Source: Clostridia bacterium (GTDB taxonomy: Bacteria; Bacillota; Clostridia; TANB77; CAG-508). From it: DNA of 64,000 nucleotides. The stretch lies in contig JAFWYK010000010.1 in assembly GCA_017517685.1 (NCBI GenBank), forward strand, positions 130,499-194,498. Direction: 5' to 3'. The position numbers and the translations under genes were made by a program. The notes below the pieces were generated by a model, which worked only from the letters and a program-made list of their open reading frames with translations, was not told where the DNA came from and searched no databases. Positions 17,588-39,649 of the stretch are shown here, one piece after another; positions within the stretch are counted from its first letter, which is position 1, and the number at the start of each line of letters is the position of its first letter.

Positions 17588-18112
17588 ATGAAAAAAGAAA
17601 TGAAAGAAAAAACAAAAGATACAAATAATATACAAAAGTTAATTAAATTTTTATCATTTGGTCAAGCTTTTTTAATAGCAGTACCATTAGTAAGATTAAT
17701 GCTTGTTATAATTGTAACAGTAGGATCAATGATTGCAGGTGAAAATGTAACTATAACTGAAGTTGCATATGAATTCTTTAATTTAGAAAAACCTGTGTTT
17801 ACAACATTAAAAGCTCAAGTAGTATATTATGCTTTTGTTATTTTTTCTGTTTTAGGATATATTATAAATATTTCATTATTAAATAAAATTGAAAAAATAT
17901 TAAGAAATACTGAAGAAGCGAAAACACCATTTACAGAAAACAATATTGTTTTACTTGATAAAATAAAAGGTTTAGTTTTTGTAAGTTTTATTACAATGTT
18001 TTTAGGAAATAAATTTGGAATGAGTTTAATTCCACTTGTTGTTGTAATAGGATTAATTGGAGTATTTAAACATGGATATAAATTACAACAAGAAGTAGAT
18101 GAGACATTATAA
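17588..18112 (+). CDS. Membrane protein (DUF2975-like partner of a YozG-type regulator)
   Basis: Four predicted TM segments. Overlaps and precedes a small XRE HTH gene, a recurrent Firmicute gene pair. Confidence 0.55.
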   Translation: MKKEMKEKTKDTNNIQKLIKFLSFGQAFLIAVPLVRLMLVIIVTVGSMIAGENVTITEVAYEFFNLEKPVFTTLKAQVVYYAFVIFSVLGYIINISLLNKIEKILRNTEEAKTPFTENNIVLLDKIKGLVFVSFITMFLGNKFGMSLIPLVVVIGLIGVFKHGYKLQQEVDETL

Positions 18113-20292: not shown

Positions 20293-20330
20293 AAGTCTTG
20301 TCAGTTGGAAAACTGATTTGCCAGTAATAT

Positions 20331-20419
20331 GCAGATGTGGCGGAACTGGCAGACGCACAGGACTTAAAATCCTGCGGGCTTCAAATCCCGTGCCGGTTCG
20401 ATTCCGGCCATCTGCACCA
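20331..20419 (+). tRNA. tRNA-Leu (anticodon UAA), long variable arm, encoded CCA
   Basis: Acceptor GCAGATG/CATCTGC, anticodon stem CAGGA/TCCTG with loop CTTAAAA, variable arm, T-arm GCCGG TTCGATT CCGGC. Terminator at 20421..20454. Confidence 0.92.
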
Positions 20420-20717
20420 AAAGACGACTTTGAAAAAAGTCGTCTTTTCTTTTTATATCAGCACTTTCAGCCTTTCTCAACTGCTTTCAACTCTTTTTAG
20501 TTGCGGCTCTAAGAGTAAAGCTTTCAAAGCATTGAAATTATTGTTATTTTTTGTTAAATTTACATAAAATTTTATATATACTTATAAATATTTATGGGAT
20601 GAGCAAGGGATGAGTTTTTTAAAATATAAAAAAATGTGAATTTTGAATATATATGATATAATTAAGATAATACATTATAATTCTATATAATATATGTCAT
20701 ATACAGGAGGATTTTTA

Positions 20718-21185
20718 ATGAAAGAAATACCAATATTAGAAATACCAATATATTCTATGAGCCCCCAAAAATTTAGTGATAAATGGAATAATTTTTTTAA
20801 AAATAATTTTCCTCAAAATCATTTACTTAATGATATAAAAAGAACTTATTATCCTTTAAATATTTGGCAATATAATCAAATTATTGGATATATCACTATT
20901 AGTTGTTCAAAAAATGATATTTGGTTTGAAGAATATTTATCTTTTAATAAAGAAAAATTTTGGTTTAGAAGTAAAAATAAGGTATTTGTTCAAAAAATGA
21001 ATTTAAATGGATTTCATTTTAGAATAGAACCAGATGATACAAACGAAACAATAAGAAATCAAATTTTAGAATGGTTAGATTATTTACTTGATGATAAAAT
21101 ATTTAAAAATAGATATATTGATAGAAGTTTATTTGACATTCAATTACATAATCTTGATATTATAAAAATTATAAATGAATTATAA
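20718..21185 (+). CDS. Hypothetical protein (islet 1 cargo)
   Basis: ORF 20694..21185. Start placed at ATG 20718 behind AGGAGG. I recognise no motif. Confidence 0.6.
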   Translation: MKEIPILEIPIYSMSPQKFSDKWNNFFKNNFPQNHLLNDIKRTYYPLNIWQYNQIIGYITISCSKNDIWFEEYLSFNKEKFWFRSKNKVFVQKMNLNGFHFRIEPDDTNETIRNQILEWLDYLLDDKIFKNRYIDRSLFDIQLHNLDIIKIINEL

Positions 21186-21328
21186 TTTTTATAATATCAT
21201 AAGATGTTGTACGAGGAATAAATTAGCAATATAAAAGCAGAGATTTATAAAAATCTCTGCTTTTAATTAGTTTCCCCTAATTATCTATTTTTAAGTTTTA
21301 ATAAATGATAGAAAATGTTTAAAAGGAT

Positions 21329-22583
21329 TTAACGAACATCTTCTTTATCATCTAATAAATTATTTCTTTCATAATACGCATTAACTTTGTTGATTTCGTC
21401 TAATTTGAAATCATTAAAAATAGATGTATAAGTATTTAAAGTAATCTTAACATCAGAATGTCCCATTAATTTTTGTAATACAACAGCAGGCATACCAGCT
21501 TCGATCGAACGAGTTGCATAAGAATGTCTTAAAATATGTGTTGAGATTCCGGGGTCTCATAATATTTAAATTCTTACACATTCTTTTAAGCTGTGAATTC
21601 ATAGAATGTGGATGAACCAATTTATCTCCATAAGTAAATAAAAGGTTATCTTTATTGTTTTTTGAATATTCTAACTGTTCTATTATATGCTCTTTTAAAA
21701 ATTGGGGAATTGGTAACAATCTTTTTCCAGTTGCTGTTTTTGTAGATTTTCCCATAATGACAGCTCCAGTTTCATTAGTCGTTAGAGTTCTTGAAATTTG
21801 TATTGTGTCATTATCAAGATTTATATCGGTCGATTTTAAAGCTAAAGCTTCGCCAACTCTTAAACCAAGATATAGTTGAAGAAGAAATACATTCTTATAT
21901 TTTTCTTCGCTTATTTTTGATTTTAGAAGATATTGAGATAATATTTTGTGCTCTGTTAACGATAGTGCCGATAATTCTTTTTTATCTAATCTACTTTTAG
22001 GTTTTATTACATCTTCCATTGGATTGTCTTGAATAAATTTGCTTTTAACTGCAAATTTAAAAGATTGAGCAACTTGTTCCCAAACTTTCTTAATTGAAGA
22101 ATCACTATATTTATGTGAAAGTTCATTAAAGAATTTTTGAAGTTGCATATAAGAAATATCTTGAATATTTAATTTTCCTATAGAACTATTTTCAATAATT
22201 CTAATAGTATCTAATGTTCTTCTATAATAGCCAGGAGATATATCATTAGCTTCATATCTTTGTTGAAGATGTTTTCTTATAAGTTCGATTAAAGGTAATC
22301 CATGTTTAGTAATAAATTTAAAGTCATTAGATTGAAACATTAATTGTTTATATTTTTTTAAAGCTTCTTCCTTTGTTTTTCCAGATACACATTTTCTAAT
22401 TCTAGTTCCGTCAATACAATCATAAACATAAAATTTGTATTGCCAAGATTTATATCGTTTATCATAATAATATTGCCCTTCACCATTAGAGTGTGTGGCT
22501 TTTTTCTTTAGTTCGTCTAAATTTAGTTCCTTTTTAATTGCTTCGATTAATTCAGGATCTACACTAATTTTTGAATTGGTCAT
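21329..22583 (-). pseudogene. Tyrosine recombinase/integrase, frameshifted
   Basis: The 376-aa ORF has a SAM-like N-domain and a core-binding region, then loses sense after ...KNLNIMRP. The adjacent frame continues GISTHILRHSYATRSIEAGMPAVVLQKLMGHSDVKITLNTYTS (the HxxR and catalytic Y boxes) to a stop at 21329. Removing one G from the G4 run at 21551..21554 restores a single ORF. Confidence 0.85.
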
Positions 22584-22606
22584 AAATTCTCTCCATTCAT
22601 ATAAAT

Positions 22607-22735
22607 TAGCTCGAACGCCAAATGACTTCGACAGTCAAATATTTTAAAAAGGAGTATTTGATTTATGTGTGTGCCAAAAGAAAAAACACACAACAATATT
22701 ATATCAAAAATAGAAGAGAAAATCAATATTATGTA
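22607..22735 (+). repeat. Copy 1 of a roughly 128-bp repeat (region upstream of the integrase)
   Basis: Aligns by eye at about 85% with 26677..26804. Contains an SD plus a 23-codon mini-ORF (22665..22736) and two hairpins. Confidence 0.8.
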
Positions 22736-22998
22736 AACAAATCATCTATATAGAGAAGTATTTTTTATACTTTAATATGAGAAGTTATCTAATAGATAAC
22801 TTTTTATATTAAAGTATGCAAAGGGGTTATAAGGGGAAAATCCCCTTATCATACAGAGAACTTTTTTTAAGTTCTCTAGTATGTTATAGCACTTATAATT
22901 AAATGCTATTAGATATTCAAGCAATATACCAAGAATTGATAATTCATCATTTTTATGATATTATGAATAAAACTTATAATCGAGGTGATTTTTTGAAA

Positions 22999-23790
22999 AT
23001 GCCAAAAAGTGATAATTTCATTTTACATTTTGGAGTGTTATTAGATAGTTCTAAAATAAGAATGAATTTAACAAGAGATAATTACTCAATAATAGATAAA
23101 AATAATTATACAAAAAGGCGTGATGAATTATTAATTTTACTTAATTGGGATAAATGGAAAAAGCAAAAAGAAGAATTAGAATTTGATGAGTTTAAAACTA
23201 TAGTTTGTCCTCCTGGACTTAAGTTTGAAAAAGAAGATGGAAAATTAGTATTATCTAAAGAGTATTGTAATAGATATCATGAATTGTGTTTAAAAAATTA
23301 TGATTTAAATATGAAATTTTTAAGTAATTTAAATGAAAATGATTTTAATAACACTATTAATAAAATAATAAAAAAATTTAAAATGACAGAAATTAATGAT
23401 TTAAATAATTATGCTTCTAAGTTTGGTATATATATGTGTGTATTGGATAATTATAAACAGATATATATAGGACAAACCAAAACAAGTTTTAAAGAAAGAA
23501 TTTTACAGCATTGGAAAAATAAACCAAAATTTGATAAAATATTATTTGGTAATTCAAGAAAATCAGTTATATCATATGATTCTTATGGAGCTTTAGATAC
23601 AACAAGAATTTTTACTATATGTGAAACTAATCAAGATAAAATTGACACTCTTGAGAAAAGGATTGTAGATGCCATTTCAAAAGATTATCTTTGTAATAGA
23701 ATTGGTGGCGGAATTCATTTGAATAACATTAATGATCATTATGCTGCTATAAATAGTATGAATTTAAGAAAACTAGAAGATAATTTTTAG
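22999..23790 (+). CDS. GIY-YIG nuclease-domain protein with an unknown N-terminal domain
   Basis: C-terminal FGIYMCVLDNYKQIYIGQTKTSFKERILQHW matches the GIY...YIG...R...H pattern. Start placed at ATG 22999 behind GAGGTGA. Confidence 0.7.
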   Translation: MPKSDNFILHFGVLLDSSKIRMNLTRDNYSIIDKNNYTKRRDELLILLNWDKWKKQKEELEFDEFKTIVCPPGLKFEKEDGKLVLSKEYCNRYHELCLKNYDLNMKFLSNLNENDFNNTINKIIKKFKMTEINDLNNYASKFGIYMCVLDNYKQIYIGQTKTSFKERILQHWKNKPKFDKILFGNSRKSVISYDSYGALDTTRIFTICETNQDKIDTLEKRIVDAISKDYLCNRIGGGIHLNNINDHYAAINSMNLRKLEDNF

Positions 23791-23823
23791 ATAAATTTAA
23801 AAGATAATATAAATGGAGAAATT

Positions 23824-24813
23824 ATGGGAATATTAGATATATTTGATAAGTTTAGAGATGCAATAATTTTAAAAGAAGATTGTGAGTTAGAAAGAAAAGT
23901 AAAATATTTAGAAGAATTAAAAAATAAAAATCCTAATAATAAGAATATCACTCAACAATTATATATGGCACAAAAAGGATTAGAAGGCGAAAATGAAATA
24001 ATATATCAATTAAAAAAATCTAATATTGGTATGTTTATTCTTCATGATGTTAATTTAGTATATGAAGATTTAAAAGCCCAAATTGATTTTATTGTAATAA
24101 CTCCTTGGTGTTGTTATTTTATAGAATGTAAAAATCTAATTGGAAATATTTCAGTTAATGAAAAAGGAGATTTTATTAGAGAATATTCTTTTAAAGGTCA
24201 TAAAGTAAAAAAAGGAATGGAATCTCCTTATAGACAAGTTCAAGCACAAAGAGATGTTTATAAAAAAATTTGGTTAAAATTACAAGGAAAATTAAAAGGC
24301 TTTCTTTTTGAAAGAAACTTTGAAAGTTTTCATAGAGTATTAGTTGTTGCAGCTAATGGTGAAAATATATTAAATACCAAATATGCTCCTAAAGAAATGA
24401 AAAACAATATAATAAAAGCTGATGCTTTAATAAGAAAATTAGAATATGATAGAGATCATAGCGATAGAGATTTATGGGATAATAAAAAATCTATGGAACA
24501 ATGGGCGAATCATTTTATAAAATTAAATGTAGAAAAAGAAGAAAAATTTGAAATTAAATTTGAAGATTGTGAAGATAAAGTTGAAGCTTCAAATACAGAT
24601 GTATTAAAAGAAAAATTAATTGAATTTAGAAAACAAAGGTCAAAAGAAAAAAACATACCTGCTTATTATGTTTTTAATAATGACGAATTAGAGAAAATTT
24701 TGGAAATATTACCAAAAACATTTGAAGATTTAAAAAATTCTAAAATATTAACAGATGTTAAAATTAATTCTCATGGAAAAGATATTGTTAATATAATTAA
24801 TGAAATACAATAA
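23824..24813 (+). CDS. NERD-domain nuclease-like protein with a C-terminal HRDC-like domain
   Basis: GENEIIYQLK...HDV......QIDFIVITPWCCYFIECKN is the NERD (PD-(D/E)xK-like) pattern. C-terminal NIPAYYVFNNDELEKILEILPKTFEDLKN resembles HRDC. Starts 33 nt after the GIY-YIG gene with its own SD. Confidence 0.7.
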   Translation: MGILDIFDKFRDAIILKEDCELERKVKYLEELKNKNPNNKNITQQLYMAQKGLEGENEIIYQLKKSNIGMFILHDVNLVYEDLKAQIDFIVITPWCCYFIECKNLIGNISVNEKGDFIREYSFKGHKVKKGMESPYRQVQAQRDVYKKIWLKLQGKLKGFLFERNFESFHRVLVVAANGENILNTKYAPKEMKNNIIKADALIRKLEYDRDHSDRDLWDNKKSMEQWANHFIKLNVEKEEKFEIKFEDCEDKVEASNTDVLKEKLIEFRKQRSKEKNIPAYYVFNNDELEKILEILPKTFEDLKNSKILTDVKINSHGKDIVNIINEIQ

Positions 24814-24893
24814 TTACTAAAAAATCTATCAAAATGGGATGAGCAAAAAATAAAGTGTAGATGTATCAAGGGTTTGAGTATGCCACTTGTTAT

Positions 24894-24905
24894 CATCTGC
24901 ACCAA
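24894..24905 (+). repeat. att-type direct repeat of the tRNA-Leu 3' end (copy 1), followed by terminator 24904..24933
   Basis: CATCTGCACCAA is identical to 20409..20420. Upstream bases resemble a degenerate T-arm. Confidence 0.8.
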
Positions 24906-25801
24906 GCTTGAGTGAAAACTCAAGCTTTTTTTTATTATTTAACATTATTCAACATTATTTAAAAGTATTGCTACAGGCTAGTTCTGTAGCTTTTTTGATT
25001 TTTATCATTATTTGTCGTTATTTAAAATTATTGAACATTATTTGAATTTTACTACCCATTTTACTACCCACTTTTGAAAGAGAATATAATCTATGAAAGT
25101 GTTGAAATAAGTTGAATAGAGAAGTTTTATTATTTGTCGATATATAACATTATTCAATTTGATTTACCGACCATTTTACACACAAATTTATAAGTATTAT
25201 TTTTAAAACTTTATTTTTTGACAAGATGTTGAGAAAAAAGTGTATTTGTGATATATAGTATAAGAAGAAAATAAAAATAATATTATGATTGAATTGGAGA
25301 AAAAATCGATATAGATACAACTGAAATAAAATTAGCTACTTTAGATAAATATTCACAAGAATATAGTAAAGAGAAATTATTTAATGAATTAGAAAAAAAT
25401 AGTACGAAAAAAAATGAGCAGTATATATATTTAGTATATAGCATGTATATGGATTGTATGTGATGAAATATTATTAATTATGAATTTAAAGATAAAAAAT
25501 AAAACGATTATAAATGCTGCAGTTCTAAATAAATCAATCTTTTTACAGTATTGATTATAAATAATGGAAGACAAAAATAAAAAACTAGCAATTCTTACTT
25601 ATGTAAGTGTTCGTTAGTTTTTTTGTGGAGGCTCTAGCCATTCTTATTGATTGAAAATGTTGATATATAGTCATTTTATTTTCAAAATGGAGGAATTGGA
25701 GACAAATATAATTTTAAATAAAAAGAAATAATAAATAAATTTATAAAAGGATAAAAAATTAAAAACACTATTCGTCATTGAATAGTGTTTTTTTTATGTA
25801 T

Positions 25802-26380
25802 TTAAAGATCTTTTGATGGTTTTAAAACATCTTCCTCTGTTACAGTATTGAATTTAAAAATATATGTTTCCTCTAAAAATGGTTCTTCACAAGTAATTTT
25901 TTCTAAAGAATAGTTTTCTGAATTATAATATTTTTTGAAAATGTCTTGCATTTTATAAACATAGTTATTGTTTTCTTTCTTTAAAAAAGAAGTATTAGAA
26001 TTGTCTATACTAACTACGGATTTAATTTTTTCAATTAATGTATCATTAAATGAGTTAGATTCTAGGATTCCTTCATCTAATGTATAAATGTATGATATTT
26101 TTTCACCAGTTATAGTATTTTTCCAGTCTGTTGTTTGTAAAATATTGTTTTCATAGTTGTTAATTAAAATAATGTTATCTTTAAAATAAATTTCATTTAT
26201 AATTATTTTTTCATAATTATGTCTAGTTTCTAATTTTATATACATATTTTTGGCTGTAGTTATTTCAGCCGATTTTTTGTTTATATTATTAGTAATAATT
26301 TTTTGTGTTATAAGATTAGTTATTATAATTGAGATTGCAATTATAATAACTAAAATAATTATTTTTGATATTTTTTTCAT
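25802..26380 (-). CDS. N-terminally anchored hypothetical protein (paralog family with 29636..30340)
   Basis: Signal-anchor TM, SD AAAGGGG. The C-terminal FKFNTVTEEDVLKPS resembles IEFDCVTDEDMIVPD of the islet-3 protein. Confidence 0.65.
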   Translation of the reverse strand: MKKISKIIILVIIIAISIIITNLITQKIITNNINKKSAEITTAKNMYIKLETRHNYEKIIINEIYFKDNIILINNYENNILQTTDWKNTITGEKISYIYTLDEGILESNSFNDTLIEKIKSVVSIDNSNTSFLKKENNNYVYKMQDIFKKYYNSENYSLEKITCEEPFLEETYIFKFNTVTEEDVLKPSKDL

Positions 26381-26676
26381 AGTATAAACCCCTTTCGATG
26401 TATATGTGCAATGTATTTCGTTTTTTTATAGTAAACAATATTAAGTGAAATACTATAATAGACTTCATAAAAATAATATTTACTAATATTATATACTATA
26501 TAATTAGTGTTTGTCTAGAAAAAAGATAGAAATTAATCAAATTTTGAATAAAAACGATATAGTGAGTAAATCTAGTTGTATACTGGGATTGCTCACTATT
26601 TTTGTCGATTTTTCAATGAAATTCAAGGTAATTCAATGAAATTTTAAAATAAGCTTTTTTTCGTGCTATTATGAAG

Positions 26677-26804
26677 TTAGTTCGAACAACAAATGATTTC
26701 CGGAAATCAAATATTTTTAAAAGGAGTATTTGATTATGTGTGTGCCAAAAGAAAAACACACATAACTATTATATCAAAAAACAGCAAAAGTGATATTATG
26801 TTAA
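26677..26804 (+). repeat. Copy 2 of the roughly 128-bp repeat
   Basis: Same order of elements as 22607..22735. A 1-nt shorter A-run truncates the mini-ORF to 9 codons (26736..26765). Confidence 0.8.
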
Positions 26805-26922
26805 CTTTTAAGACTATTTAACATTATTCATTTGTATATATACTTGTCTGAAAAACAGTAAAAATGGGATGAGTTAAAAATAGAGTTTGCTTGTCCCAAG
26901 GCTTACAGAGTTCGTGTATTAA

Positions 26923-26935
26923 CCATCTGCACCAA
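26923..26935 (+). repeat. att-type direct repeat (copy 2), followed by terminator 26935..26965
   Basis: CCATCTGCACCAA, preceded by GTTCGTGTATTAA resembling the tRNA T-arm GTTCGATTCCGG. Confidence 0.8.
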
Positions 26936-27314
26936 ATCCTGAGTTTTTTGACTCAGGATTTTTTTATATTCAAAATTATATAAAGTTATACAACTGTTGA
27001 AAATAGTGGTTTTGCGAGTAGTTGTCAAAAATGCTTGCAAATTTTTTTTATTCAAAAATACTTAAAATTACCTAAAAATAACCCCATTTGTTCCCAATTT
27101 GTTCCCAGCATTTGTCCCCAAAAATAAAACCGCAAATTCTTGTATAGACAGGGATTGCTAAAACACGTTGTATAAAAATTTGTGCCCCAAATATTTAATA
27201 TCATACTTAGGATTTGCATAAGCTTAGAAGACTTATACATCAATGGTTTGATTGATTTTGTGATAAATAACAAAATATTTTAAAAAAAATTTGTTATCAA
27301 AATAAAAAAATATA

Positions 27315-27360
27315 TTGACACCGACATTTGTATGTGTAATAATATAGACAGACAATTGTC
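27315..27360 (+). promoter_or_regulatory. blaI-like promoter and operator
   Basis: TTGACA at 27315..27320. The perfect palindrome GACAATTGTC (27351..27360) sits inside ATAGACAGACAATTGTCTAT and resembles BlaI/MecI/CopY ACA-N2-TGT boxes. Confidence 0.55.
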
Positions 27361-27377
27361 TATTAGGAGGTGTTGAA

Positions 27378-27758
27378 ATGGAAGAAATATTTAAAAGTCT
27401 ACCAGATTCAGAATTAAAAGTAATGATGGTTATTTGGGAAAACGGAAGTAAAATGTCTACAGGAGAAATTTTAGCAGAATTAAAAGCTGATGTTGATTGG
27501 AAATTATCAACTCTACAAGTAATTCTTACAAGATTAACTGAAAAAGGTTTTTTAAAAAATGAAAAGGAAAACAGATTAAATTATTATACTTCAATAGTTG
27601 ATTGCTCAAAATATACAAAACATGAAACAAAAAATTTTATTAAAAAGATGTATAATAATTCAGCAAAAAAACTTATTGCATCTTTAGTTGAAGGAGATGA
27701 TTCTTTAACTGATAATGATATTGAGGAGATAAAAAGAATATTAGACAGGAGTAAATAA
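27378..27758 (+). CDS. BlaI/MecI/CopY-family transcriptional repressor
   Basis: Winged-helix N-terminus LSDSELKVMMVIWE....ST.EI...L......W..STLQVILTRLTEKGFL. Confidence 0.85.
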   Translation: MEEIFKSLPDSELKVMMVIWENGSKMSTGEILAELKADVDWKLSTLQVILTRLTEKGFLKNEKENRLNYYTSIVDCSKYTKHETKNFIKKMYNNSAKKLIASLVEGDDSLTDNDIEEIKRILDRSK

Positions 27759-27761
27759 TAT

Positions 27762-29453
27762 ATGATTGAAAATATTTTTTATAATGTTGTGTTCTTTGGA
27801 TCAATTATAAGTTTGTTTATAATCCCATTATTATTATTTTTGTCCAAGAACAAACACAAATACAAATTAAAAAATGTTTATAAAATTTATATGATAATTG
27901 TACTATTATTGATGTTGCTTATTACAGGTATTGATTTTTATAGTATAAAAAGAATTATTAATAAAAACGCAACTTTTAGTAATAATGATGTGCATGTAGA
28001 AAATATGCAACCTGAAATTATACTTGAAAAACCTGAAATAATAATTGAGGTAAATGAAAGTATTAATATAAAAAATAATTTCTTGTCTGACATTTATCAT
28101 GTTTTACCTAAATTATGGATTACAATAACTATATTACTTTTGGCGTATAATTTATTTATGTATATGAATTTCTTAAGTCGCGAAAAGAAGTATTTTTGTA
28201 AGGTCTATAATAAAGAAATAGATCTTATAATCTCAAATATATGTAATATATTAGGTCTGAATAAGGTTGATTATAAATTTTCTGATAAAGTAACAACACC
28301 AATGGTAGTTGGGTTATTCAAAAAAATTATAATACTTCCAAGCAATATTACAAGTATAGATAATTATGATATGGTTTTAAAACATGAAATTGTTCATATA
28401 AAAAATAAAGATATAGAATGTAAATTCTTGTTATTATTTTTAAGAATTATTTATTGTTTTAATCCTATAATATATAAATTTGTTGAACAAATAGATGAAG
28501 TATTAGAATTAAGATGTGATGAGATTGTTCTAGAAAATCAATCACAAGAATATAAAATAAAATATGCTCAAGTACTATTAAATCAAATTGAATCTAATAG
28601 AAAACAAAGATATGTTTTTTCTATGAATTTTGCAAATAAGAGAGGTAATATAATGAGAAGATTTTCTAACATTGTAGATAAGACAAAAAAGAAAAATGTT
28701 ATTGGAATATCTTGTGTAACTGCTGGAATTATTATTGTTTCTTCAGCAATTATTTTCTCAATACCAAGTGTGAATTTTGCAGTATTTAAAGAAAATGGTT
28801 TAGAAGAAGTTGAGAATAATACAGTTTTAGAAACTACAAAAGAAGAAACAGTAGAAAATATTGTAAAAGATAATACTAGTGATAATACAGAAACAGCCAA
28901 AAATGTTGTTGTAGAAGAACAAACTAATACAACAATAAGTGAACCTGTATTAGAGAATGAAACAAAAGATGAATCTAATAATGTTGATGATGTAAAGAAT
29001 AATGATAAAGCAGAAAAAATAGTAGAACCAACTGTGCAAGAAGAACCTAAATTAATAACAACAAAGAAAGTTTCAACGGTAAGTAAAGAGTTTTTTTCAC
29101 CTGTTAGTGGTGGAATACCAATTACAACTAAATTTAGTGGAGTAGGAAACCATGCAGGAGTAGATTATAAATTAGAACAAGGAAAAACAATTCAAGCAGC
29201 AGCTTCCGGTAAAGTTATATATTCAGGATATAAAGGTTCTTATGGTAATTGTATAATTATTGAACATGAAAATGGATTTAGGACTGTATATGCACATTGT
29301 AGTGAATTATTAGTAACAGTTGATGAGCAAGTAACTACTGGACAAAAAATAGCAGAATCAGGTGCAACTGGAAATGCAACTGGACCATGTTTACATTTTG
29401 AAATTAGAGATGCGGAAGGAAGGTATGTAGATCCAGAAATGTATTTAAATTAA
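27762..29453 (+). CDS. BlaR1-type M56 peptidase/sensor fused to a C-terminal M23 (LytM-type) peptidase domain
   Basis: HEIVHIKNKD (M56 HExxH) in the polytopic N-half. C-terminal HAGVDY...GSYGNCIIIEHENGFRTVYAHC...GPCLHFEIR is the M23 signature. No PBP-type sensor domain. Confidence 0.8.
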   Translation: MIENIFYNVVFFGSIISLFIIPLLLFLSKNKHKYKLKNVYKIYMIIVLLLMLLITGIDFYSIKRIINKNATFSNNDVHVENMQPEIILEKPEIIIEVNESINIKNNFLSDIYHVLPKLWITITILLLAYNLFMYMNFLSREKKYFCKVYNKEIDLIISNICNILGLNKVDYKFSDKVTTPMVVGLFKKIIILPSNITSIDNYDMVLKHEIVHIKNKDIECKFLLLFLRIIYCFNPIIYKFVEQIDEVLELRCDEIVLENQSQEYKIKYAQVLLNQIESNRKQRYVFSMNFANKRGNIMRRFSNIVDKTKKKNVIGISCVTAGIIIVSSAIIFSIPSVNFAVFKENGLEEVENNTVLETTKEETVENIVKDNTSDNTETAKNVVVEEQTNTTISEPVLENETKDESNNVDDVKNNDKAEKIVEPTVQEEPKLITTKKVSTVSKEFFSPVSGGIPITTKFSGVGNHAGVDYKLEQGKTIQAAASGKVIYSGYKGSYGNCIIIEHENGFRTVYAHCSELLVTVDEQVTTGQKIAESGATGNATGPCLHFEIRDAEGRYVDPEMYLN

Positions 29454-29635
29454 ATAATTGAAATATAATAAAAAATAAGCTATAATACAAATAACTTAAG
29501 TGATAATCGTATGAAGACACGATTGAAGATTAGAGATATGTTGACCACATATCTCTTTTTTGTTGATTTGATATTGAATAAAATATTATTATATGATTTA
29601 ATTTTATTAAATAAATATATAAAAGAGGTGTTTAT

Positions 29636-30340
29636 ATGAAAGATAATAATGTAAATAATAAGAAGAATAAAATATTATTTGTGGTATTAATAATAATAGC
29701 AATTATATTAATTCATTTTGTAAGAAATGCAATTATTATAAAATCTTTAGCTAATAAAGTGGAAGAATTGAAAAGTAGTGAATTAAATAATTATCATATT
29801 AAGTGGGTATCGTATTCTTTTGATACTACAACTGTATTTGATATTTATTATAAAGATGGAATGTATAGAAAAGATACATATAAATTAGATTATACTCATC
29901 CAACGCTACCGTATACAAAAGTATCTGAATATAAATTAAAAGATGGTTCAAAAGTTGGTATTTTTGAATTAGATCAAAAAGTAAAAACATATGATAAAAA
30001 TGATGAGCAAACTCAAGATGATTCTTTAATTTCTATAGCAAATTTTTCACATATTGAGATGTATTTGGTTACACCAAGTTCATTTATTAATAATTGTTTA
30101 TTAAATATAATAACAAAAGATAAAAATAATGGAGAAGATGTTTATAAAGTAACCTCAATATTTGATGATAAAACAGAATATTTTAGTTGTGATACAGGTT
30201 TAACTGTAAGATCAGATTCTTGGTATAGTACTAATACTAATTTTTATAATACACGTACAGATATTTTAATAGAGTTTGATTGTGTAACAGATGAAGATAT
30301 GATAGTACCAGATTTGGAAGGATATACTAATATTGATTAA
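29636..30340 (+). CDS. N-terminally anchored hypothetical protein (paralog of 25802..26380)
   Basis: TM anchor, SD AGAGGTG, shared C-terminal motif. Confidence 0.65.
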   Translation: MKDNNVNNKKNKILFVVLIIIAIILIHFVRNAIIIKSLANKVEELKSSELNNYHIKWVSYSFDTTTVFDIYYKDGMYRKDTYKLDYTHPTLPYTKVSEYKLKDGSKVGIFELDQKVKTYDKNDEQTQDDSLISIANFSHIEMYLVTPSSFINNCLLNIITKDKNNGEDVYKVTSIFDDKTEYFSCDTGLTVRSDSWYSTNTNFYNTRTDILIEFDCVTDEDMIVPDLEGYTNID

Positions 30341-30403
30341 TTTTTAATTGATATACTTATCGATTATGATAAGATAATAAGCAATCTTAGAAGGGAATAA
30401 TAA

Positions 30404-31072
30404 ATGATGAAAAAAGTATTTATTGTTATTATAGTTTTTGTTTTGATATTATTAAGTTTAGGATTGATATTTAAACAAAATATTGCTGAATTTTACACTG
30501 AAAAAATTTTAATGAAAGAATATGAAGAAAAATATTCAAAAGTAAAAAGCATTGATTATGAAATTGAATATAATAAAATTGAAAATAAGGTTTTAGAAAA
30601 TGAAATAGAATTAGGAAATTTAAAGGCTTCAATAATAAACTTTAATATCTCAGAAGAAAATAAAATGGAGATAGACTTAAAATTTTTTGGTAAAGAGCAA
30701 TTAAATGCAGTAGGGTATATTTTAAGAGTATATAATGATAAATACCATTTAGGAGATAGATATGATGGTAGTGTTTCAATAACAGGTGCTGATAATGCAA
30801 TGTATAGTGAAGTTTTTTATTCAAAAGTGTTTGAAGAATATTCTTTTGAAAAAAACTTATTAAATGTTACTAGTTTTTCATCACAAAAAGAATTGTTAGA
30901 TAGTGGTGAAGTAATATATAAGCTAATTTATGAATTGCCAGAAGAATTTCTTGTGCAAGATAAATTAAATATAAATTTATTTGATATAAATTATCAGTAT
31001 ATAGGAAATAAAGAATTTTATAAAGTTGCAGAACCATTATGTGAATTAAATTATACAATTAATATTAAATAA
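30404..31072 (+). CDS. N-terminally anchored hypothetical protein
   Basis: Signal-anchor followed by a 200-aa soluble region. Terminator at about 31170..31212. Confidence 0.6.
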   Translation: MMKKVFIVIIVFVLILLSLGLIFKQNIAEFYTEKILMKEYEEKYSKVKSIDYEIEYNKIENKVLENEIELGNLKASIINFNISEENKMEIDLKFFGKEQLNAVGYILRVYNDKYHLGDRYDGSVSITGADNAMYSEVFYSKVFEEYSFEKNLLNVTSFSSQKELLDSGEVIYKLIYELPEEFLVQDKLNINLFDINYQYIGNKEFYKVAEPLCELNYTINIK

Positions 31073-31255
31073 TAAAAAATAGAGAATATGATTCGTTAAT
31101 TATAGTTGTTTACAAGTATGAATGCAGAAAATAATTATAAAGTTTATGAATAGGATAATTAAGAGGAAATAAAGTACCCCATCTTGTATTTATATTACAA
31201 GATGGGGATTTTTATTCATCATATAATAAATATTCTATAAGATTTGAACGATAAC

Positions 31256-31669
31256 CTAGACGACGATCTTGGTATGAATATAAAATGTAATAATTTTAAT
31301 ACTTGTATCAGGAAGTGTTTTGGGTACTTCTGTTATTGCATAATATAAACATAAGTATTCTGTAGATTCATTGTATACTATTTTTTTAATAAAAAACCAA
31401 GGTTTTTTATTATGAGATATTAGGTATTGGTTTGTCAGAAATGTAAAAATAAAAAAAAGAATAATAATTATTTCTAATATTATTATAAATAATCGATTTT
31501 TTTTATTGCATCTATTCATATAAATGATAGAACCTATAAAACAAAGTAAAATGAAAATATTTAAATATAAATGGCTTTTTGCAACAGCTAATATCCATAA
31601 AGAAAAGGTAACAAATAAAAATGACAATATAAAAATTATTGATAAAATATGTATTAAAAATTTTTTCAT
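31256..31669 (-). CDS. Small polytopic membrane protein
   Basis: Three or four hydrophobic helices, SD GGGTGA. Confidence 0.55.
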   Translation of the reverse strand: MKKFLIHILSIIFILSFLFVTFSLWILAVAKSHLYLNIFILLCFIGSIIYMNRCNKKNRLFIIILEIIIILFFIFTFLTNQYLISHNKKPWFFIKKIVYNESTEYLCLYYAITEVPKTLPDTSIKIITFYIHTKIVV

Positions 31670-31920
31670 ATTAATAATTCACCCGTTTAAATATATTGAA
31701 ATAATTATATCATATATTGGATGTTAGTAAATAATATTAAAAAAGATTAATAAAAGATCTTATTATTGAATTTTATTAAATAATAAGAATGATGAAAAGA
31801 TTTATAAATTATAACATAATTTAAAAGTATTTGGGATTATTGGTTATGAATTCCTAAATTCACACCCTTAAAATGATTGTAAGCCTTAGAAAATAAATGA
31901 ATAGAGTGTTTTTTTCTGAG

Positions 31921-31932
31921 CATCTGCACCAA
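31921..31932 (+). repeat. att-type direct repeat (copy 3, distal end of the islet array), followed by terminator 31932..31961
   Basis: CATCTGCACCAA. Its terminator AATCTTGAG/CTCAAGATT is related to those after copies 1 and 2. Confidence 0.8.
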
Positions 31933-32074
31933 ATCTTGAGAGAAATCTCAAGATTTTTTTTATTTAATCAAAAATCTATTTAATTAAATGTATTAATGTG
32001 ATAATATATATTAAATGCTTTTTTGGCATTTGCATTTAAATTTTATTAGTAAGAACACTAGGAGGTAGTAAATT

Positions 32075-32758
32075 ATGAAATTACTTATTGATGATGCAGA
32101 TATCGAAAAAATTAGAAAAATTTATGAATTTTATGCAATAGATGGTGTAACAACAAATCCATCAATTTTAGCAAAATCAGGAAGAAAGCCATATGAAGTT
32201 TTAAGAGAAATTCGTGATCTTTTAGGTGAAGATGCAGAACTTCATGTACAAGTAGTATCTTCAAAAGCTGATGATATGGTAAAAGAAGGAAAGAAAATAG
32301 TAGAGAAATTAGGTAAAAACACATATGTAAAAATTCCTACAGTGCCAGAAGGATTAAAGGCAATGAGAATATTACATAATGAAGGATATAAAATAACAGC
32401 TACTGCAATTTATACACCACTTCAAGCATATTTAGCAGCAAAAGCTGGAGCTAATTATGCAGCACCATATGTAAATAGAATTGATAATTTAGGAACAAAT
32501 GGTATTGAAGTAACAAGAAAAATTCATGATATTTTTGAAAATAATGGATTTAAAACAGAAATTTTAGCAGCAAGTTTTAAAAACTCACTTCAAGTATTAG
32601 AACTTTGTGAATATGGAGTTGGAGCTGCTACAGTTGCACCAGATATTATTGAAGGATTTATTAATAATACTACAAATGTTCAAGCAGCTGTACAAGATTT
32701 TACAGATGATTTTGAAAAATTATGTGGTGAAGGAAAAACAATGTTAAATTGTGATTAA
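32075..32758 (+). CDS. Transaldolase-family protein (fructose-6-phosphate aldolase/Tal type 3B)
   Basis: MKLLIDDADIEKI...GVTTNPSILAK and the Schiff-base lysine context YVKIPT. 227 aa. Confidence 0.85.
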   Translation: MKLLIDDADIEKIRKIYEFYAIDGVTTNPSILAKSGRKPYEVLREIRDLLGEDAELHVQVVSSKADDMVKEGKKIVEKLGKNTYVKIPTVPEGLKAMRILHNEGYKITATAIYTPLQAYLAAKAGANYAAPYVNRIDNLGTNGIEVTRKIHDIFENNGFKTEILAASFKNSLQVLELCEYGVGAATVAPDIIEGFINNTTNVQAAVQDFTDDFEKLCGEGKTMLNCD

Positions 32759-38985: not shown

Positions 38986-39600
38986 TCAGAAAGCGGAATG
39001 GCTTTTGATTTTCTTGCGGTTTTGCTTTTCGAGAGTGCGTCTTGCTTCGAGCTCTGCAAAGAACTTTTCGGTTTTTGTGCGATCGCTCGCTGTGGTGATA
39101 GAACGTTTCCGAACATCTTCGAACACCTTGTCAGAGATGATGAGTTCAACACAAGCAAGATACAACACGTAGTCAAGGGGAGTCGTCTTATGGAAAGAAA
39201 ATACACGAGCGATTTCTGCTTTTGTTTGTTCAGGATGATTAGCAAAATATCTTGCGATATGAGCAATATCCTGTTTGGTAAATGCAGATAAGTGTTTTCT
39301 CTTTTCTATAAGCAAGTCATACTTGAGTTGACTCTTGTGACCGTTGTTGCCATGTGCTTTTTGGTTGACCTTGATTTTATCAAGGATCTTCTCTGCAGTT
39401 TCAATGCTCACCAAATGATGGGTGATTGCCATTGCGAGTAAGGTGTAGTAGGTACTTTCGGTAACGTTATATTTCTCAGTGAGAGAAGAGCGAGCATAAG
39501 TCGCGGACGACTTTGCATAGTCTACAGCAATAGCCCGTGCGAGTTTGTAAACTCCGGCTACAGTATTGCACCGACGAATGTCAAGAATTGTTCTTGCCAT
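38986..39600 (-). CDS. Hypothetical 204-aa protein, compositionally foreign, possibly DNA-binding (cassette C)
   Basis: About 45% GC. Start placed at ATG 39600 behind GGAGGTG. Two HTH-like stretches (EKYNVTESTYYTLL and TKAEIARVFSFHKTTPLDYV). Basic C-terminal tail. Confidence 0.75.
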   Translation of the reverse strand: MARTILDIRRCNTVAGVYKLARAIAVDYAKSSATYARSSLTEKYNVTESTYYTLLAMAITHHLVSIETAEKILDKIKVNQKAHGNNGHKSQLKYDLLIEKRKHLSAFTKQDIAHIARYFANHPEQTKAEIARVFSFHKTTPLDYVLYLACVELIISDKVFEDVRKRSITTASDRTKTEKFFAELEARRTLEKQNRKKIKSHSAF

Positions 39601-39649
39601 AGTAACACCTCCAATTGTAATAGTGTGTGAATTAATAAACTGCATATTA

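Follow-up and report, generated by a model that had tools for sequence, protein, structure and literature searches.

A probable tandem accretion array of small integrative elements at tRNA-Leu(UAA) of a gut Clostridia bacterium, with a proposed +1 recoding site in its integrase gene

Tandem accretion arrays at the attB site of tRNA genes are already known from the accretion of IMEs and CIMEs and from the tycheposons. Site-specific accretion of IMEs and ICEs with CIMEs has been described for ICESt1/CIME in Streptococcus thermophilus and for tandem IMEs in streptococci (PMC5704250). The tycheposons of Prochlorococcus are small cargo-carrying tyrosine-recombinase elements located beside tRNA genes and flanked by partial tRNAs (bioRxiv 10.1101/2020.12.28.424599). 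Equally, tandem genomic islands delimited by direct repeats of the 3' end of one small-RNA gene are reported at ssrA of Dehalococcoides (PMC3146451). The locus analysed below, from an uncultured gut Clostridia bacterium, is situated in a 64-kb stretch of DNA, which as a whole is called the window. Its 11.5-kb interval between the tRNA-Leu(UAA) gene (20331..20419, + strand; ARAGORN; Rfam tRNA 59.3 bits) and tal/fsa of the transaldolase family (32075..32758, + strand; Pfam TAL_FSA 1.5e-55), the conserved right flank of the hotspot, very probably consists of three small integrative elements that have accreted in tandem at one core.

As in IME/ICE/CIME accretion, elements with a tyrosine integrase use the 3' end of a tRNA gene as their target and repeated integration at one att site leads to a tandem array, in which some members have, like CIMEs, kept their att sites with the integration genes lost; relatives that occupy the site itself encode Mob_Pre relaxases and are therefore IMEs. 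In contrast to those systems, the modules are of very small size (2-5 kb), neither a relaxase nor another transfer gene was detected in islet 1, integration restores the intact target at attL together with an element-borne terminator, and the integrase needs a frame change. With the tycheposons the locus shares the displacement of older elements deeper into the island by successive integrations, the presence of degenerate remnants and a cargo of defence or adaptation genes, but the host is of another phylum (Clostridia) and the integrase of another family, islet 1 shows neither a replication nor a helicase module, and the repeat consists of the 12-nt acceptor end only and not of a longer partial tRNA. 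With the Dehalococcoides ssrA islands, several tandem elements that vary between strains are in common, while target gene, cargo and integrases all differ.

The att core, CATCTGCACCAA, is composed of the last 11 nt of tRNA-Leu(UAA), that is the acceptor 3' strand, the discriminator base and CCA, and one flanking base. Four exact copies, all on the + strand, are present in the 64 kb: copy 0 (20409..20420) inside the tRNA 3' end as attL of islet 1, copy 1 (24894..24905) at the junction of islets 1 and 2, copy 2 (26924..26935) at the junction of islets 2 and 3, and copy 3 (31921-31932) which, with the terminator T-d, extends over 31921..31956. The recurrence of the tRNA 3' end reported in the initial annotation is hereby borne out, including the 13-nt match of copy 2, which starts already at 26923. 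Chance does not account for it: 0.17 matches with at most one mismatch are expected and none of 100 shuffles gave four. Remnants of tandemly duplicated tRNA-Leu genes (pseudo-tRNAs), or chance matches, might in principle explain a repeat of only 12 nt that is identical to a tRNA 3' end, but as an alternative to att sites this is hardly credible, being effectively refuted by the shuffles, by a tRNA-model search which detected no tRNA-like sequence upstream of any copy at E<=0.1, and by other strains in which modules are gained or lost exactly at the repeats. Equally undetectable is the decayed T-arm that had been proposed upstream of copies 1 and 2, where local alignment to the tRNA was no better than for shuffles and end-anchored identities reached only 4/25 and 6/25.

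Directly at each core copy a hairpin with a T-run is found (20419-20448, 24904-24927, 26934-26961 and 31931-31956), in a region where a terminator scan gave 13 terminator-like sites versus 1.4 expected, and the three distal hairpins are, as had been observed before, variants of each other (gcttgagtgaaaactcaagc, atcctgag..ctcaggat and atcttgagagaaatctcaagat). The assignment of each terminator as the end of the islet to its left had to be given up, as each terminator type goes with its right-hand element across all strain contexts, as the start of the P' arm of that element. T-a (aaaagacgactttgaaaaaagtcgtctttt; 20419..20448, + strand), the first feature of the left (P') arm of islet 1, which now terminates the tRNA, accompanies the islet-1 element type in every context, including those away from the tRNA. 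Only T-d, adjoining tal, is chromosomal, namely the ancestral tRNA terminator, which has been left behind just before tal; the T-d-to-tal junction is identical in the loci L099, L003 and L004. Furthermore, the motif TGGGATGAG at 24835 and 26865 lies in both cases exactly 59 nt upstream of the respective core copy, which confirms the equal spacing of a shared motif before copies 1 and 2 and corrects the start positions previously given for AAAATGGGATGAG by one nucleotide. The motif is also present twice in the left arm of islet 1 (20595 and 20606), where two direct TGGGATGAG/AGGGATGAG repeats (20595..20614, + strand), conserved in the related element of locus L108, are candidate arm-type sites to which the integrase might bind.

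Comparison with related strains of identical GlyRS protein gives direct insight into the modularity of the site. Islet 1 is precisely absent in L005, L009 and L011-L014, where the tRNA is joined directly to window position 24906 onward, and is hence a presence/absence polymorphism with the 12-nt core as its boundary. Islets 2 and 3 occur in either order and beside many different neighbours, always cut at the core: islet 2 has the tRNA on its left in L005 and other modules in L010, L099 and L104, with varying modules on its right (L009, L005), and in L104 the tRNA is followed directly by the T-c arm and BlaI of islet 3, with islet 2 placed after islet 3. Other modules bounded by the same core in L010, L099, L006 and L008 include intact 396-aa integrases and an IME with a Mob_Pre relaxase, and in the Logan contigs L003 and L004 the break lies precisely at the core that precedes tal. 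The tRNA-Leu to tal interval thus varies by modules gained, lost and reordered at cores, and serial site-specific integration into one att site, as initially suggested, is strongly supported; the accompanying claim of an array frozen by decay fails at the species level, as the site is a very dynamic hotspot. An excision circle or an empty tRNA-tal site was not found, with 0 matches in scans of JGI metagenomes, a collection that may lack this organism.

The present diversity of islet order might, in an array built by integration, be mainly the product of homologous recombination between strains, with exchange via shared core-plus-terminator and arm sequences of 40-100 bp and with the integrase-less islets not moved by a recombinase. 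We regard this as possible, although somewhat improbable. The core and T-d are common to many junctions over approximately 40 nt, recombination of cargo blocks within islets also occurs at junctions that lack a core (L005 20157/20178), UzuA and NERD genes are 99.1% identical between elements with integrases of 94.4% identity, and the permutations of islets 2 and 3, which lack an integrase, could arise in this way and not by mobilisation in trans. On the other hand, all outer boundaries lie exactly at the 12-nt core despite differing terminators (T-a, T-b, T-c, T-d and T-e), as site-specific recombination predicts. Homologous exchange and tandem accretion are not mutually exclusive.

Islet 1 (20421..24905; 4485 bp) has a conserved left arm, int module and right arm and two cargo slots. 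Its backbone corresponds to the L108 element at 89% (20309-20651), 97% (21221-22898) and 87.5% (24810-24905), whereas both cargo slots differ between the two. Slot 1 harbours orf163 (20694..21185, + strand), with no match in Pfam or PADLOC, and is occupied in relatives by genes for 252 and 337 aa, by a CBASS cyclase with a 4TM effector or by sigma70 with a 322-aa gene. The regulatory region upstream of int (22584..22898) contains a 30-nt inverted repeat at 22762-22822, and its segment 22603-22738 is common to the end of islet 2 and the promoter region of int396-type elements. Slot 2 encodes a UzuA-like GIY-YIG protein of the Uzume anti-phage defence (22903..23790, + strand; PADLOC UzuA E=1.3e-60; weak Pfam GIY-YIG) and a NERD-HRDC protein (23824..24813, + strand; Pfam NERD 2.8e-15, HRDC 1.4e-12), the gene of which accompanies UzuA in L118 and L122; the right (P) arm follows (24810..24893, + strand), with the motif copy at 24835. 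With CBASS (cyclase 6e-92, 4TM effector 4.5e-50), CoiA_N and sigma70-linked genes as cargo among its relatives, islet 1 is a complete member of a mobile defence islet family.

Islets 2 and 3 possess att arms but no integrase and are in this respect CIME-like; recombination activity at the site, including mobilisation of these two islets in trans, may be presumed. Islet 2 (24906..26935; 2030 bp) starts with terminator T-b (24904-24927) and phased AT-rich repeats (24924-25053), followed by two copies of TTTTACTACCCA (25047 and 25059), a gene for a 192-aa membrane protein (25802-26380, - strand), a remnant regulatory region (26613-26810) and the right arm with TGGGATGAG at 26865; approximately 514 bp with a 138-aa gene, present in other strains, are missing. 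Islet 3 (26936..31932; 4997 bp) comprises terminator T-c (26934-26961), three copies of ATTTGTYCCCA (27086-27120), a BlaI-type repressor (27378-27758, + strand; Pfam Penicillinase_R 5.8e-28), a BlaR1-like M56 protease with a C-terminal M23 peptidase domain (27762-29453, + strand; Pfam Peptidase_M56 2.3e-32, Peptidase_M23 3.5e-32) and genes for three small proteins with a hydrophobic N-terminal stretch and no Pfam or PADLOC matches (234 aa, 29636-30340, + strand; 222 aa, 30404-31072, + strand; 137 aa, 31256-31669, - strand). Its blocks 29573-31914 and 27296-29408 are found in the opposite order in L005 and L099, the islet being a mosaic of such cargo blocks.

The only integrase gene in the window, located in islet 1 as annotated initially, is a tyrosine integrase gene in two frames (21329..22583, - strand; tblastn with intact integrases), the 0 frame extending over 22583-21552 (to ..NIMRP) and the +1 frame over 21550-21329 (GISTHILRH...LMGH...LNTYTS... 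to the stop), with the frame change at 21548-21554. The transframe protein aligns gap-free to intact homologues and reaches 80.5 bits against Pfam Phage_integrase, compared with 31.4 bits for the 0-frame ORF, the product of which has 376 aa. At the proposed shift site CCC CGG A (21548..21554, - strand), CCC (Pro) would be read, the C of CGG skipped and GGA (Gly) decoded next. With 6 occurrences among 15,890 codons of the window CGG is joint-rarest (CCC, 9); it stands in frame in a few other ORFs of the window and is therefore rare, not unassigned. All eight DNA variants have kept the site, as CCC or CCA followed by CGG; with a divergence of at most 6% they form a shallow clade, which extends over at least two host species and varied cargo, Uzume and CBASS among it. 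Purifying selection acts on both halves, each in its own frame: the N-terminal part shows 59 synonymous to 28 nonsynonymous changes (14:73 and 4:83 in the wrong frames) and the C-terminal part 7:2 in the +1 frame versus 1:8 in the 0 frame. Hosts with GlyRS genes of only 85.9% identity share an integrase of 98.1% identity, a sign of horizontal spread after the frameshift arose.

A second integrase lineage, 42% identical to the first, has independently acquired a +1 shift at GC(A/T)-CGG (GCA/GCT-CGG-T/C), and two of its variants differ by 14-23% in DNA, with the catalytic segment in the +1 frame conserved. In both lineages the transframe protein forms a complete Phage_integrase domain (80.5 and 92.1 bits) and can be aligned gap-free to intact homologues. 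A random 1-nt insertion would place a C immediately 5' of a Gly codon with a probability of about 0.003-0.004 in each lineage. Because the frame change is conserved, under purifying selection and placed at a rare CGG codon, a recoding site is more likely than the lesion seen in it before, and a programmed +1 ribosomal frameshift at CCC-CGG-A appears rather probable from the pattern of the sequences. That integration was followed by decay, with the integrase a dead pseudogene and the 11.5-kb array frozen in place, would fit a window without an uninterrupted integrase ORF, islets 2 and 3 without integrases, the deletion in islet 2 and an arrangement that is identical in L007, L095, L096, L098 and L100-L102. 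The window-type haplotype (1|2|3) shows no variation among the 8 loci carrying it, and the array of this strain may be static. We nonetheless consider decay unlikely in view of the selection on both integrase halves (59:28 and 7:2), the occurrence of the shifted integrase with five or more sets of cargo, in many array contexts and in at least two host species, the independent shift at the same rare codon in the second lineage and the high variability of the site at the species level.

The closest precedent for the proposed shift is found in the mitochondria of glass sponges, where +1 frameshifting takes place at the rare codons CGG_(A)/UGG_(A) 5' of GGA (PMC5009743). There as here, a rare A-site CGG overlaps a Gly GGN in the +1 frame and the extra base, a C, stands immediately 5' of GGN. 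Programmed +1 frameshifting at slow-to-decode codons is also represented by Ty1 (CUU-AGG-C), Ty3 and prfB. Transposases of the IS1 and IS3 families, which are DDE transposases, are made by programmed -1 frameshifting at slippery A-rich heptamers; as in these, a frame change is needed to join the DNA-binding part of the recombinase to the catalytic part, and the 0 frame by itself yields a truncated DNA-binding protein with a possible role as a regulator, but the enzyme is a tyrosine recombinase and the proposed shift is +1 at a hungry codon. As a counterpoint, +1 re-pairing is possible with CCC only, and since CCA, GCA and GCT cannot re-pair, a mechanism without slippage must be assumed, the variable P-site codon implying a shift without re-pairing as in Ty3. 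A conserved Shine-Dalgarno-like stimulator was not seen on reading the sequences at the shift sites. In contrast to the known +1 cases, the shifted gene would encode a tyrosine integrase of a bacterial mobile element, for which no +1-frameshifted example was found in a literature search.

A split integrase, or a truncated N-terminal product functioning alone, for example as a DNA-binding regulator, would dispense with ribosomal frameshifting. There are tyrosine recombinases, Flp among them, that supply the tyrosine in trans, and in the second lineage the shift site is directly followed by an ATG (M of GMRAV), with downstream ORFs of 54-65 aa predicted by gene callers. In the first lineage, the first +1-frame ATG comes only after the HxLRH motif, so that a separate C-terminal peptide would be devoid of this motif, and the CGG-then-Gly geometry common to both lineages is not predicted by a split gene, which makes this explanation quite improbable.

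For the favoured combination of tandem accretion and recoding, a coherent course of events can be proposed. Site-specific recombination by tyrosine recombinases would have placed all three elements at the same 12-nt core, the attP of each comprising the core between a right (P) arm and a left (P') arm, the latter opening with its own rho-independent terminator, so that integration would rebuild the tRNA 3' end and supply the tRNA with a new terminator. The previous core and terminator would be displaced downstream by each integration, with T-d as the original chromosomal terminator, and gain, loss and reordering of modules take place within the species exactly at the cores. The ribosome might stall on the very rare CGG and resume on the overlapping GGA (Gly), the predicted product being a full-length, catalytically complete integrase. 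The stacking of mobile islets at a tRNA site, to which this array would belong, is a known route by which bacteria come by accessory genes.

The tRNA-Leu(UAA) gene (20331-20419, + strand) opens an interval flanked on the left by the GlyRS gene and on the right by the transaldolase-family gene tal. The host is an uncultured low-GC member of the Clostridia whose nearest GTDB representative, 'Candidatus Scatovivens sp.', displays 95% GlyRS identity; scanning the GTDB genomes with GlyRS did not recover the same species. The last 11 nt of the tRNA together with the next base constitute the core CATCTGCACCAA, which occurs exactly at 20409, 24894, 26924 and 31921, all four on the + strand and with no further copy in the 64 kb, compared to 0.17 matches expected with one mismatch allowed and no shuffle reaching four. 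Each of the three islets is thereby flanked by direct repeats that match the tRNA 3' end exactly. Directly 3' of each core follows a hairpin with a T-run (20419-20448, 24904-24927, 26934-26961 and 31931-31956; terminators T-a to T-d), the three distal hairpins being variants of one sequence, and 13 terminator-like sites are observed in the region with 1.4 expected. The core repeats and adjoining terminators described in the initial annotation have thus been confirmed as four exact, co-oriented copies. A decayed tRNA T-arm proposed to precede the copies was dropped upon local alignment against shuffles and end-anchored identity, as alignment scores were no better than those of shuffles and no tRNA-model match at E<=0.1 was obtained. 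Equally, Rfam at permissive thresholds identified the real tRNA alone, with no pseudo-tRNA or other RNA family.

Comparison with contigs encoding exactly the GlyRS, tal, BlaI and NERD proteins of the window demonstrates that the sets of modules downstream of the same tRNA differ widely between closely related strains, with every boundary being the 12-nt core. In six loci (L005, L009 and L011-L014), the tRNA is joined straight to islet 2, which is 99.6% identical to window 24894-26395, with islet 1 precisely absent, the junction to be expected upon islet-1 loss being tRNA, core, GCTTGAGTGAAAAC. In L104, the tRNA is followed by the left end of islet 3 with BlaI/BlaR, a core and islet 2, an order reversed versus the window, and in L010 islet 2 is separated from the tRNA by an unrelated module of two genes. 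In L005 and L014, islet 2 is followed by a 4-kb element whose 396-aa integrase is intact, and L006, L008 and L099 harbour an IME that encodes a Mob_Pre relaxase along with an intact integrase. Islets 2 and 3 consequently have varied neighbours across related genomes, and sister species possess att copies beside tRNA-Leu as well. Furthermore, two different samples each yielded a Logan contig (L003 and L004) whose position 1 coincides with the first core base ahead of tal, consistent with a branch of the assembly graph where the core has more than one left-hand neighbour in the sample concerned. As module boundaries fall on the core across strains, the repeats are real att sites and the tRNA-Leu to tal interval is an accretion array. 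Modules are gained, lost and permuted at the cores with single-base precision, which upholds the proposed serial integration at one att site, but the claim that decay has frozen the array finds no support at species level, as closely related strains differ in modules at the site. Within the strain lineage of the window, the 1|2|3 arrangement is unchanged in all eight loci that carry it; samples with this haplotype include ERZ28018841, ERZ28654271 and SRR12529280. Pattern scans of JGI metagenomes, a collection that may lack this organism (represented in ENA and Logan), gave no match to the islet-1 attP junction (left to right ..GCCACTTGTTAT, core CATCTGCACCAA, AAGACGACTTTG..) or to an empty tRNA-tal site; a scan of IMG/VR for the tRNA 3' end gave none either, and in a megablast of the whole interval against phage and plasmid collections the tRNA gene was the sole match.

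Around the hotspot, additional variation has been observed. In L016 (reverse complement ~4470) and L015, representing two sister species, tRNA-Leu is inverted relative to GlyRS, and in L016 a core copy precedes both the tRNA, at a distance of 199 nt, and the tRNA promoter, a layout that hints at an inversion or at recombination between att copies. Window-type strains encode a 174-aa DUF2975-like gene (17588-18112) upstream of an HTH gene and GlyRS; L005, L006, L008 and others have a 30-aa ORF instead, a second small polymorphism beside the hotspot. At a position corresponding to window ~34400, L099 (14669-17490) has between the 177-aa gene and the flavin reductase gene three extra genes, encoding a 205-aa CpXC, a 406-aa and a 153-aa protein, which are absent from the window.

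The terminators had been assigned to the islets that they appear to close; judged by their company across strains, each belongs to the islet on its right. T-a accompanies the islet-1-type element always, also where that element is not beside the tRNA, T-b is always found with islet 2, T-c with the BlaI module (in L104 directly after the tRNA) and a further terminator, T-e, with the relaxase-bearing IME. Each attP therefore supplies the tRNA 3' end plus a replacement terminator, and T-d beside tal is the only chromosomal terminator, the original one of the tRNA pushed 11.5 kb away. Past its terminator, the left end of islet 2 continues with ATTATTTAACATTATT-like repeats in 10-bp phasing (24924-25165), and other elements have similar sequence beyond T-d and T-e; these repeats could be binding sites for a bending or accessory protein. 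The motif TGGGATGAG precedes core copies 1 and 2 at a distance of 59 nt, with two more at 20595/20606. It is not over-represented window-wide (9 matches versus 7 expected with one mismatch allowed), and its significance rests on its position and its conservation in L108, an islet-1-type element in another host that has kept the motifs of both islet-1 arms. Conserved in both arms, the motifs are therefore candidate arm-type integrase sites.

Islet 1 (20421-24905) encodes orf163, a tyrosine integrase on the minus strand, a UzuA-like GIY-YIG protein and a NERD-HRDC protein. The GIY-YIG protein matches the UzuA profile (PADLOC PDLC03975, E=1.3e-60, residues 34-292) and is predicted to be UzuA of the Uzume anti-phage defence. 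Alignment with L108 gives 89% identity for the left arm, 97% for the int module and 87.5% for the right arm, with both intervening segments completely different, and the core at which an islet-1-type element ends does not change with its neighbours; islet 1 is complete and not a wreck. Cargo across the family comprises Uzume with NERD-HRDC, a type-I CBASS pair (cyclase, 6e-92; 4TM effector, 4.5e-50), a CoiA_N protein and sigma-factor-linked genes, with most cargo proteins of related elements having no match in PADLOC. None of the 10 islet ORFs of the window matches a Pfam relaxase, and islet 1 is for this reason not strictly an IME; relatives at the same att site carry Mob_Pre (L006, L008, L099 and L130). 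A region of ~140 nt upstream of int (22603-22738), in which gttagttcgaac and a hairpin TGTGTG..CACACA are found, has counterparts at the islet 2 end (26613-26738) and upstream of the small-ORF and int operon of elements with the 396-aa integrase (L005 14636-14754, L006 14735-14807), and is probably a promoter/operator common to the family.

Islet 2 (24906-26935), which has retained this remnant of the int-proximal regulatory region, encodes one 192-aa membrane protein. In the window it lacks ~514 bp containing a 138-aa gene present in L005, L009 and L099; at the deletion point (26370-26395) two BLAST segments overlap by 26 nt, which suggests a deletion between short direct repeats. Islet 3 (26936-31932) encodes a BlaI-type repressor, a BlaR1-like M56 protease and three small proteins with hydrophobic N-termini. 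It is a mosaic, as a BlaI/BlaR block (27296-29408) and a block of 234-, 222- and 137-aa genes (29573-31914) have the opposite order in L005 and L099, where they are joined without a core and paired with different right arms. The partner of the BlaI-type repressor (27762-29453) combines the M56 protease domain with a C-terminal M23 peptidase, and a penicillin-binding sensor domain was not found with Pfam, so that the protein is BlaR1-like and not a canonical BlaR1. In other strains, the BlaR1-like protein is 570 aa long and its gene directly adjoins tal. Paralogy among the 234-, 222- and 192-aa proteins was not detectable. Cores and arm-like ends are kept in islets 2 and 3, with integrase and relaxase both absent, a composition by which they can be classified, on structural grounds, as putative CIMEs.

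The integrase of islet 1 is interrupted by a +1 frame change at ...ATG AGA CCC CGG AAT... (minus strand, 21557-21546). The downstream +1 frame reads GISTHILRH...LMGH...LNTYTS and contributes the HxxR, His and Tyr catalytic motifs. Joining the 0 frame (22583-21552) to the +1 frame (21550-21329), with the predicted junction peptide ..NLNIMRPGISTHILR.., gives a transframe protein with a complete tyrosine recombinase catalytic domain (LGLR..HILRH..MGH..LNTYT) that matches Pfam Phage_integrase (PF00589) with 80.5 bits over model positions 18-167 of 172; the 0-frame ORF alone, which is devoid of HxxR, His and Tyr, reaches 31.4 bits. The frame change is conserved. It is kept in all eight DNA variants of this lineage (lineage 1), which are up to 74/1255 nt apart, and in the 90%-identity cluster of 65 sequences every full-length member among those listed is 376 aa long, so each carries the shift. 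In the N-terminal part, 59 synonymous and 28 nonsynonymous sites have been counted, with 14:73 and 4:83 in the wrong frames; in the C-terminal part, the ratio is 7:2 in the +1 frame versus 1:8 in the 0 frame, a pattern that shows purifying selection on both halves, each in its own frame. The gene is 98.1% identical between hosts with 85.9% identical GlyRS genes and has therefore moved between species after the shift arose. The nearest intact relatives are 45-51% identical, and within the family the best 120 of ~2,080 integrase clusters are essentially all full length.

A second lineage (clusters P0009, P0056, P0059 and P0062), found on IMEs that encode a Mob_Pre relaxase, changes frame by +1 independently of lineage 1, at GCA/GCT-CGG (L130:7001-8198, L135:226-1423), the site being GCA-CGG-T in L130 and GCT-CGG-C in L135. 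Its 0 frame ends ..TRCIEA-R(CGG).. and the +1 frame goes on with GMRAVAVQRLLGH..LNTYTT, in which the catalytic C-terminus GMRAV..LGH..LNTYTT is conserved. Reconstructed at full length, the protein shares 42% identity with the integrase of islet 1 and contains a complete Phage_integrase domain (92.1 bits); the transframe proteins of both lineages align to intact homologues without gaps. L130 and L135 diverge by 14% in the DNA of the N-terminal and 23% in that of the C-terminal part, with the catalytic segment nearly invariant, and the synonymous to nonsynonymous ratio is 17:15 in the +1 frame as compared to 3:29 and 2:29 in the other frames. CGG is invariant at the shift site across both lineages, and in both the additional base is a C that immediately precedes a conserved Gly codon, an outcome with a probability of ~0.003-0.004 per lineage for a random insertion. 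CGG is the joint-rarest codon of the window (6/15,890), with CCC as the third-rarest, is absent from the genes of L130 (0/2,505) and occurs in either integrase gene at the shift site only. In the most divergent lineage-1 variant the P-site codon is CCA with CGG unchanged. As a separate observation, of the six CGG codons counted in frame among the long ORFs of the window, three belong to a 219-aa ORF on the minus strand (38986-39645), which may be foreign or spurious.

A sequencing or assembly error could produce such a frame change, but has been rejected because the same indel recurs in dozens of independent assemblies and variants. Transcriptional slippage was equally rejected, since a long homopolymer is missing and one variant reads CCACGG. 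The initial annotation had considered the frameshift a sign of decay. Conservation of the shift, selection in two frames, the crossing of species, the rare codons and the second lineage argue against decay and favour a programmed +1 ribosomal frameshift at a hungry CGG codon, which on this comparative evidence can be regarded as moderately probable. A counterpoint is that CGG, rare as it is, is still used in frame elsewhere in the window. Re-pairing in the +1 frame is possible for CCC-C, but not for CCA-C, GCA-C and GCT-C, and upon reading the site sequences of both lineages no conserved Shine-Dalgarno-like stimulator was seen; a Ty3-like mechanism would, by analogy, need neither P-site re-pairing nor a stimulator. 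The closest precedent found comes from glass-sponge mitochondria, where +1 frameshifting at rare CGG_(A)/UGG_(A) codons that precede GGA has received a Ty3-like interpretation (PMC5009743). Literature searches yielded no report of programmed frameshifting in a tyrosine integrase. In the wider reading, towards which we lean only slightly, small tRNA-Leu-targeting defence islets and related IMEs of low-GC gut Clostridia express their tyrosine integrase only via a programmed +1 frameshift at CGG that arose independently at least twice; the same reading would have islet 1 in the window live and able to move islets 2 and 3 also.

In the mechanism proposed, the integrase would bind the arm motifs and recombine attP with any resident core. 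The CIME-like islets 2 and 3 might persist passively or move in trans; the islet 2 arm has the TGGGATGAG motif in common with islet 1, at the same spacing. Homologous recombination might reshuffle cargo inside the modules. The shift site would have been created by a C placed directly 5' of the conserved Gly codon, and frameshifting would make the full-length integrase, with the truncated 0-frame product presumably acting as a DNA-binding protein without catalytic residues. Mobility of the element might then be controlled by the ratio of truncated to full-length protein, itself determined by how much tRNA-Arg(CCG) is available.

The array matches the accretion model of IMEs, ICEs and CIMEs (PMC5704250) and resembles the tRNA-flanked tandem arrays of tycheposons (10.1101/2020.12.28.424599) and, as far as the accessible part of their description extends, the ssrA islands of Dehalococcoides (PMC3146451). 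As such it is of an already known kind and illustrates a known process cleanly, its boundaries being resolved to single bases; what is new is the integrase with its candidate recoding signal, and the conserved CGG frameshift that has arisen twice is the surprising part of the finding. In this uncultured gut Clostridia species, one tRNA gene serves as a cassette rack whose contents, defence genes and envelope-related ones, differ between closely related strains. Scoring such integrases as pseudogenes, by pipelines as well as by human readers, would lead to the misclassification of live elements as decayed. If recoding is real, this would be, to our knowledge, the first tyrosine integrase controlled by programmed frameshifting. 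It would then be a bacterial counterpart of the hungry-codon mechanism of Ty3 and glass sponges and would make codon rarity in low-GC genomes a factor in how horizontal gene transfer is controlled.
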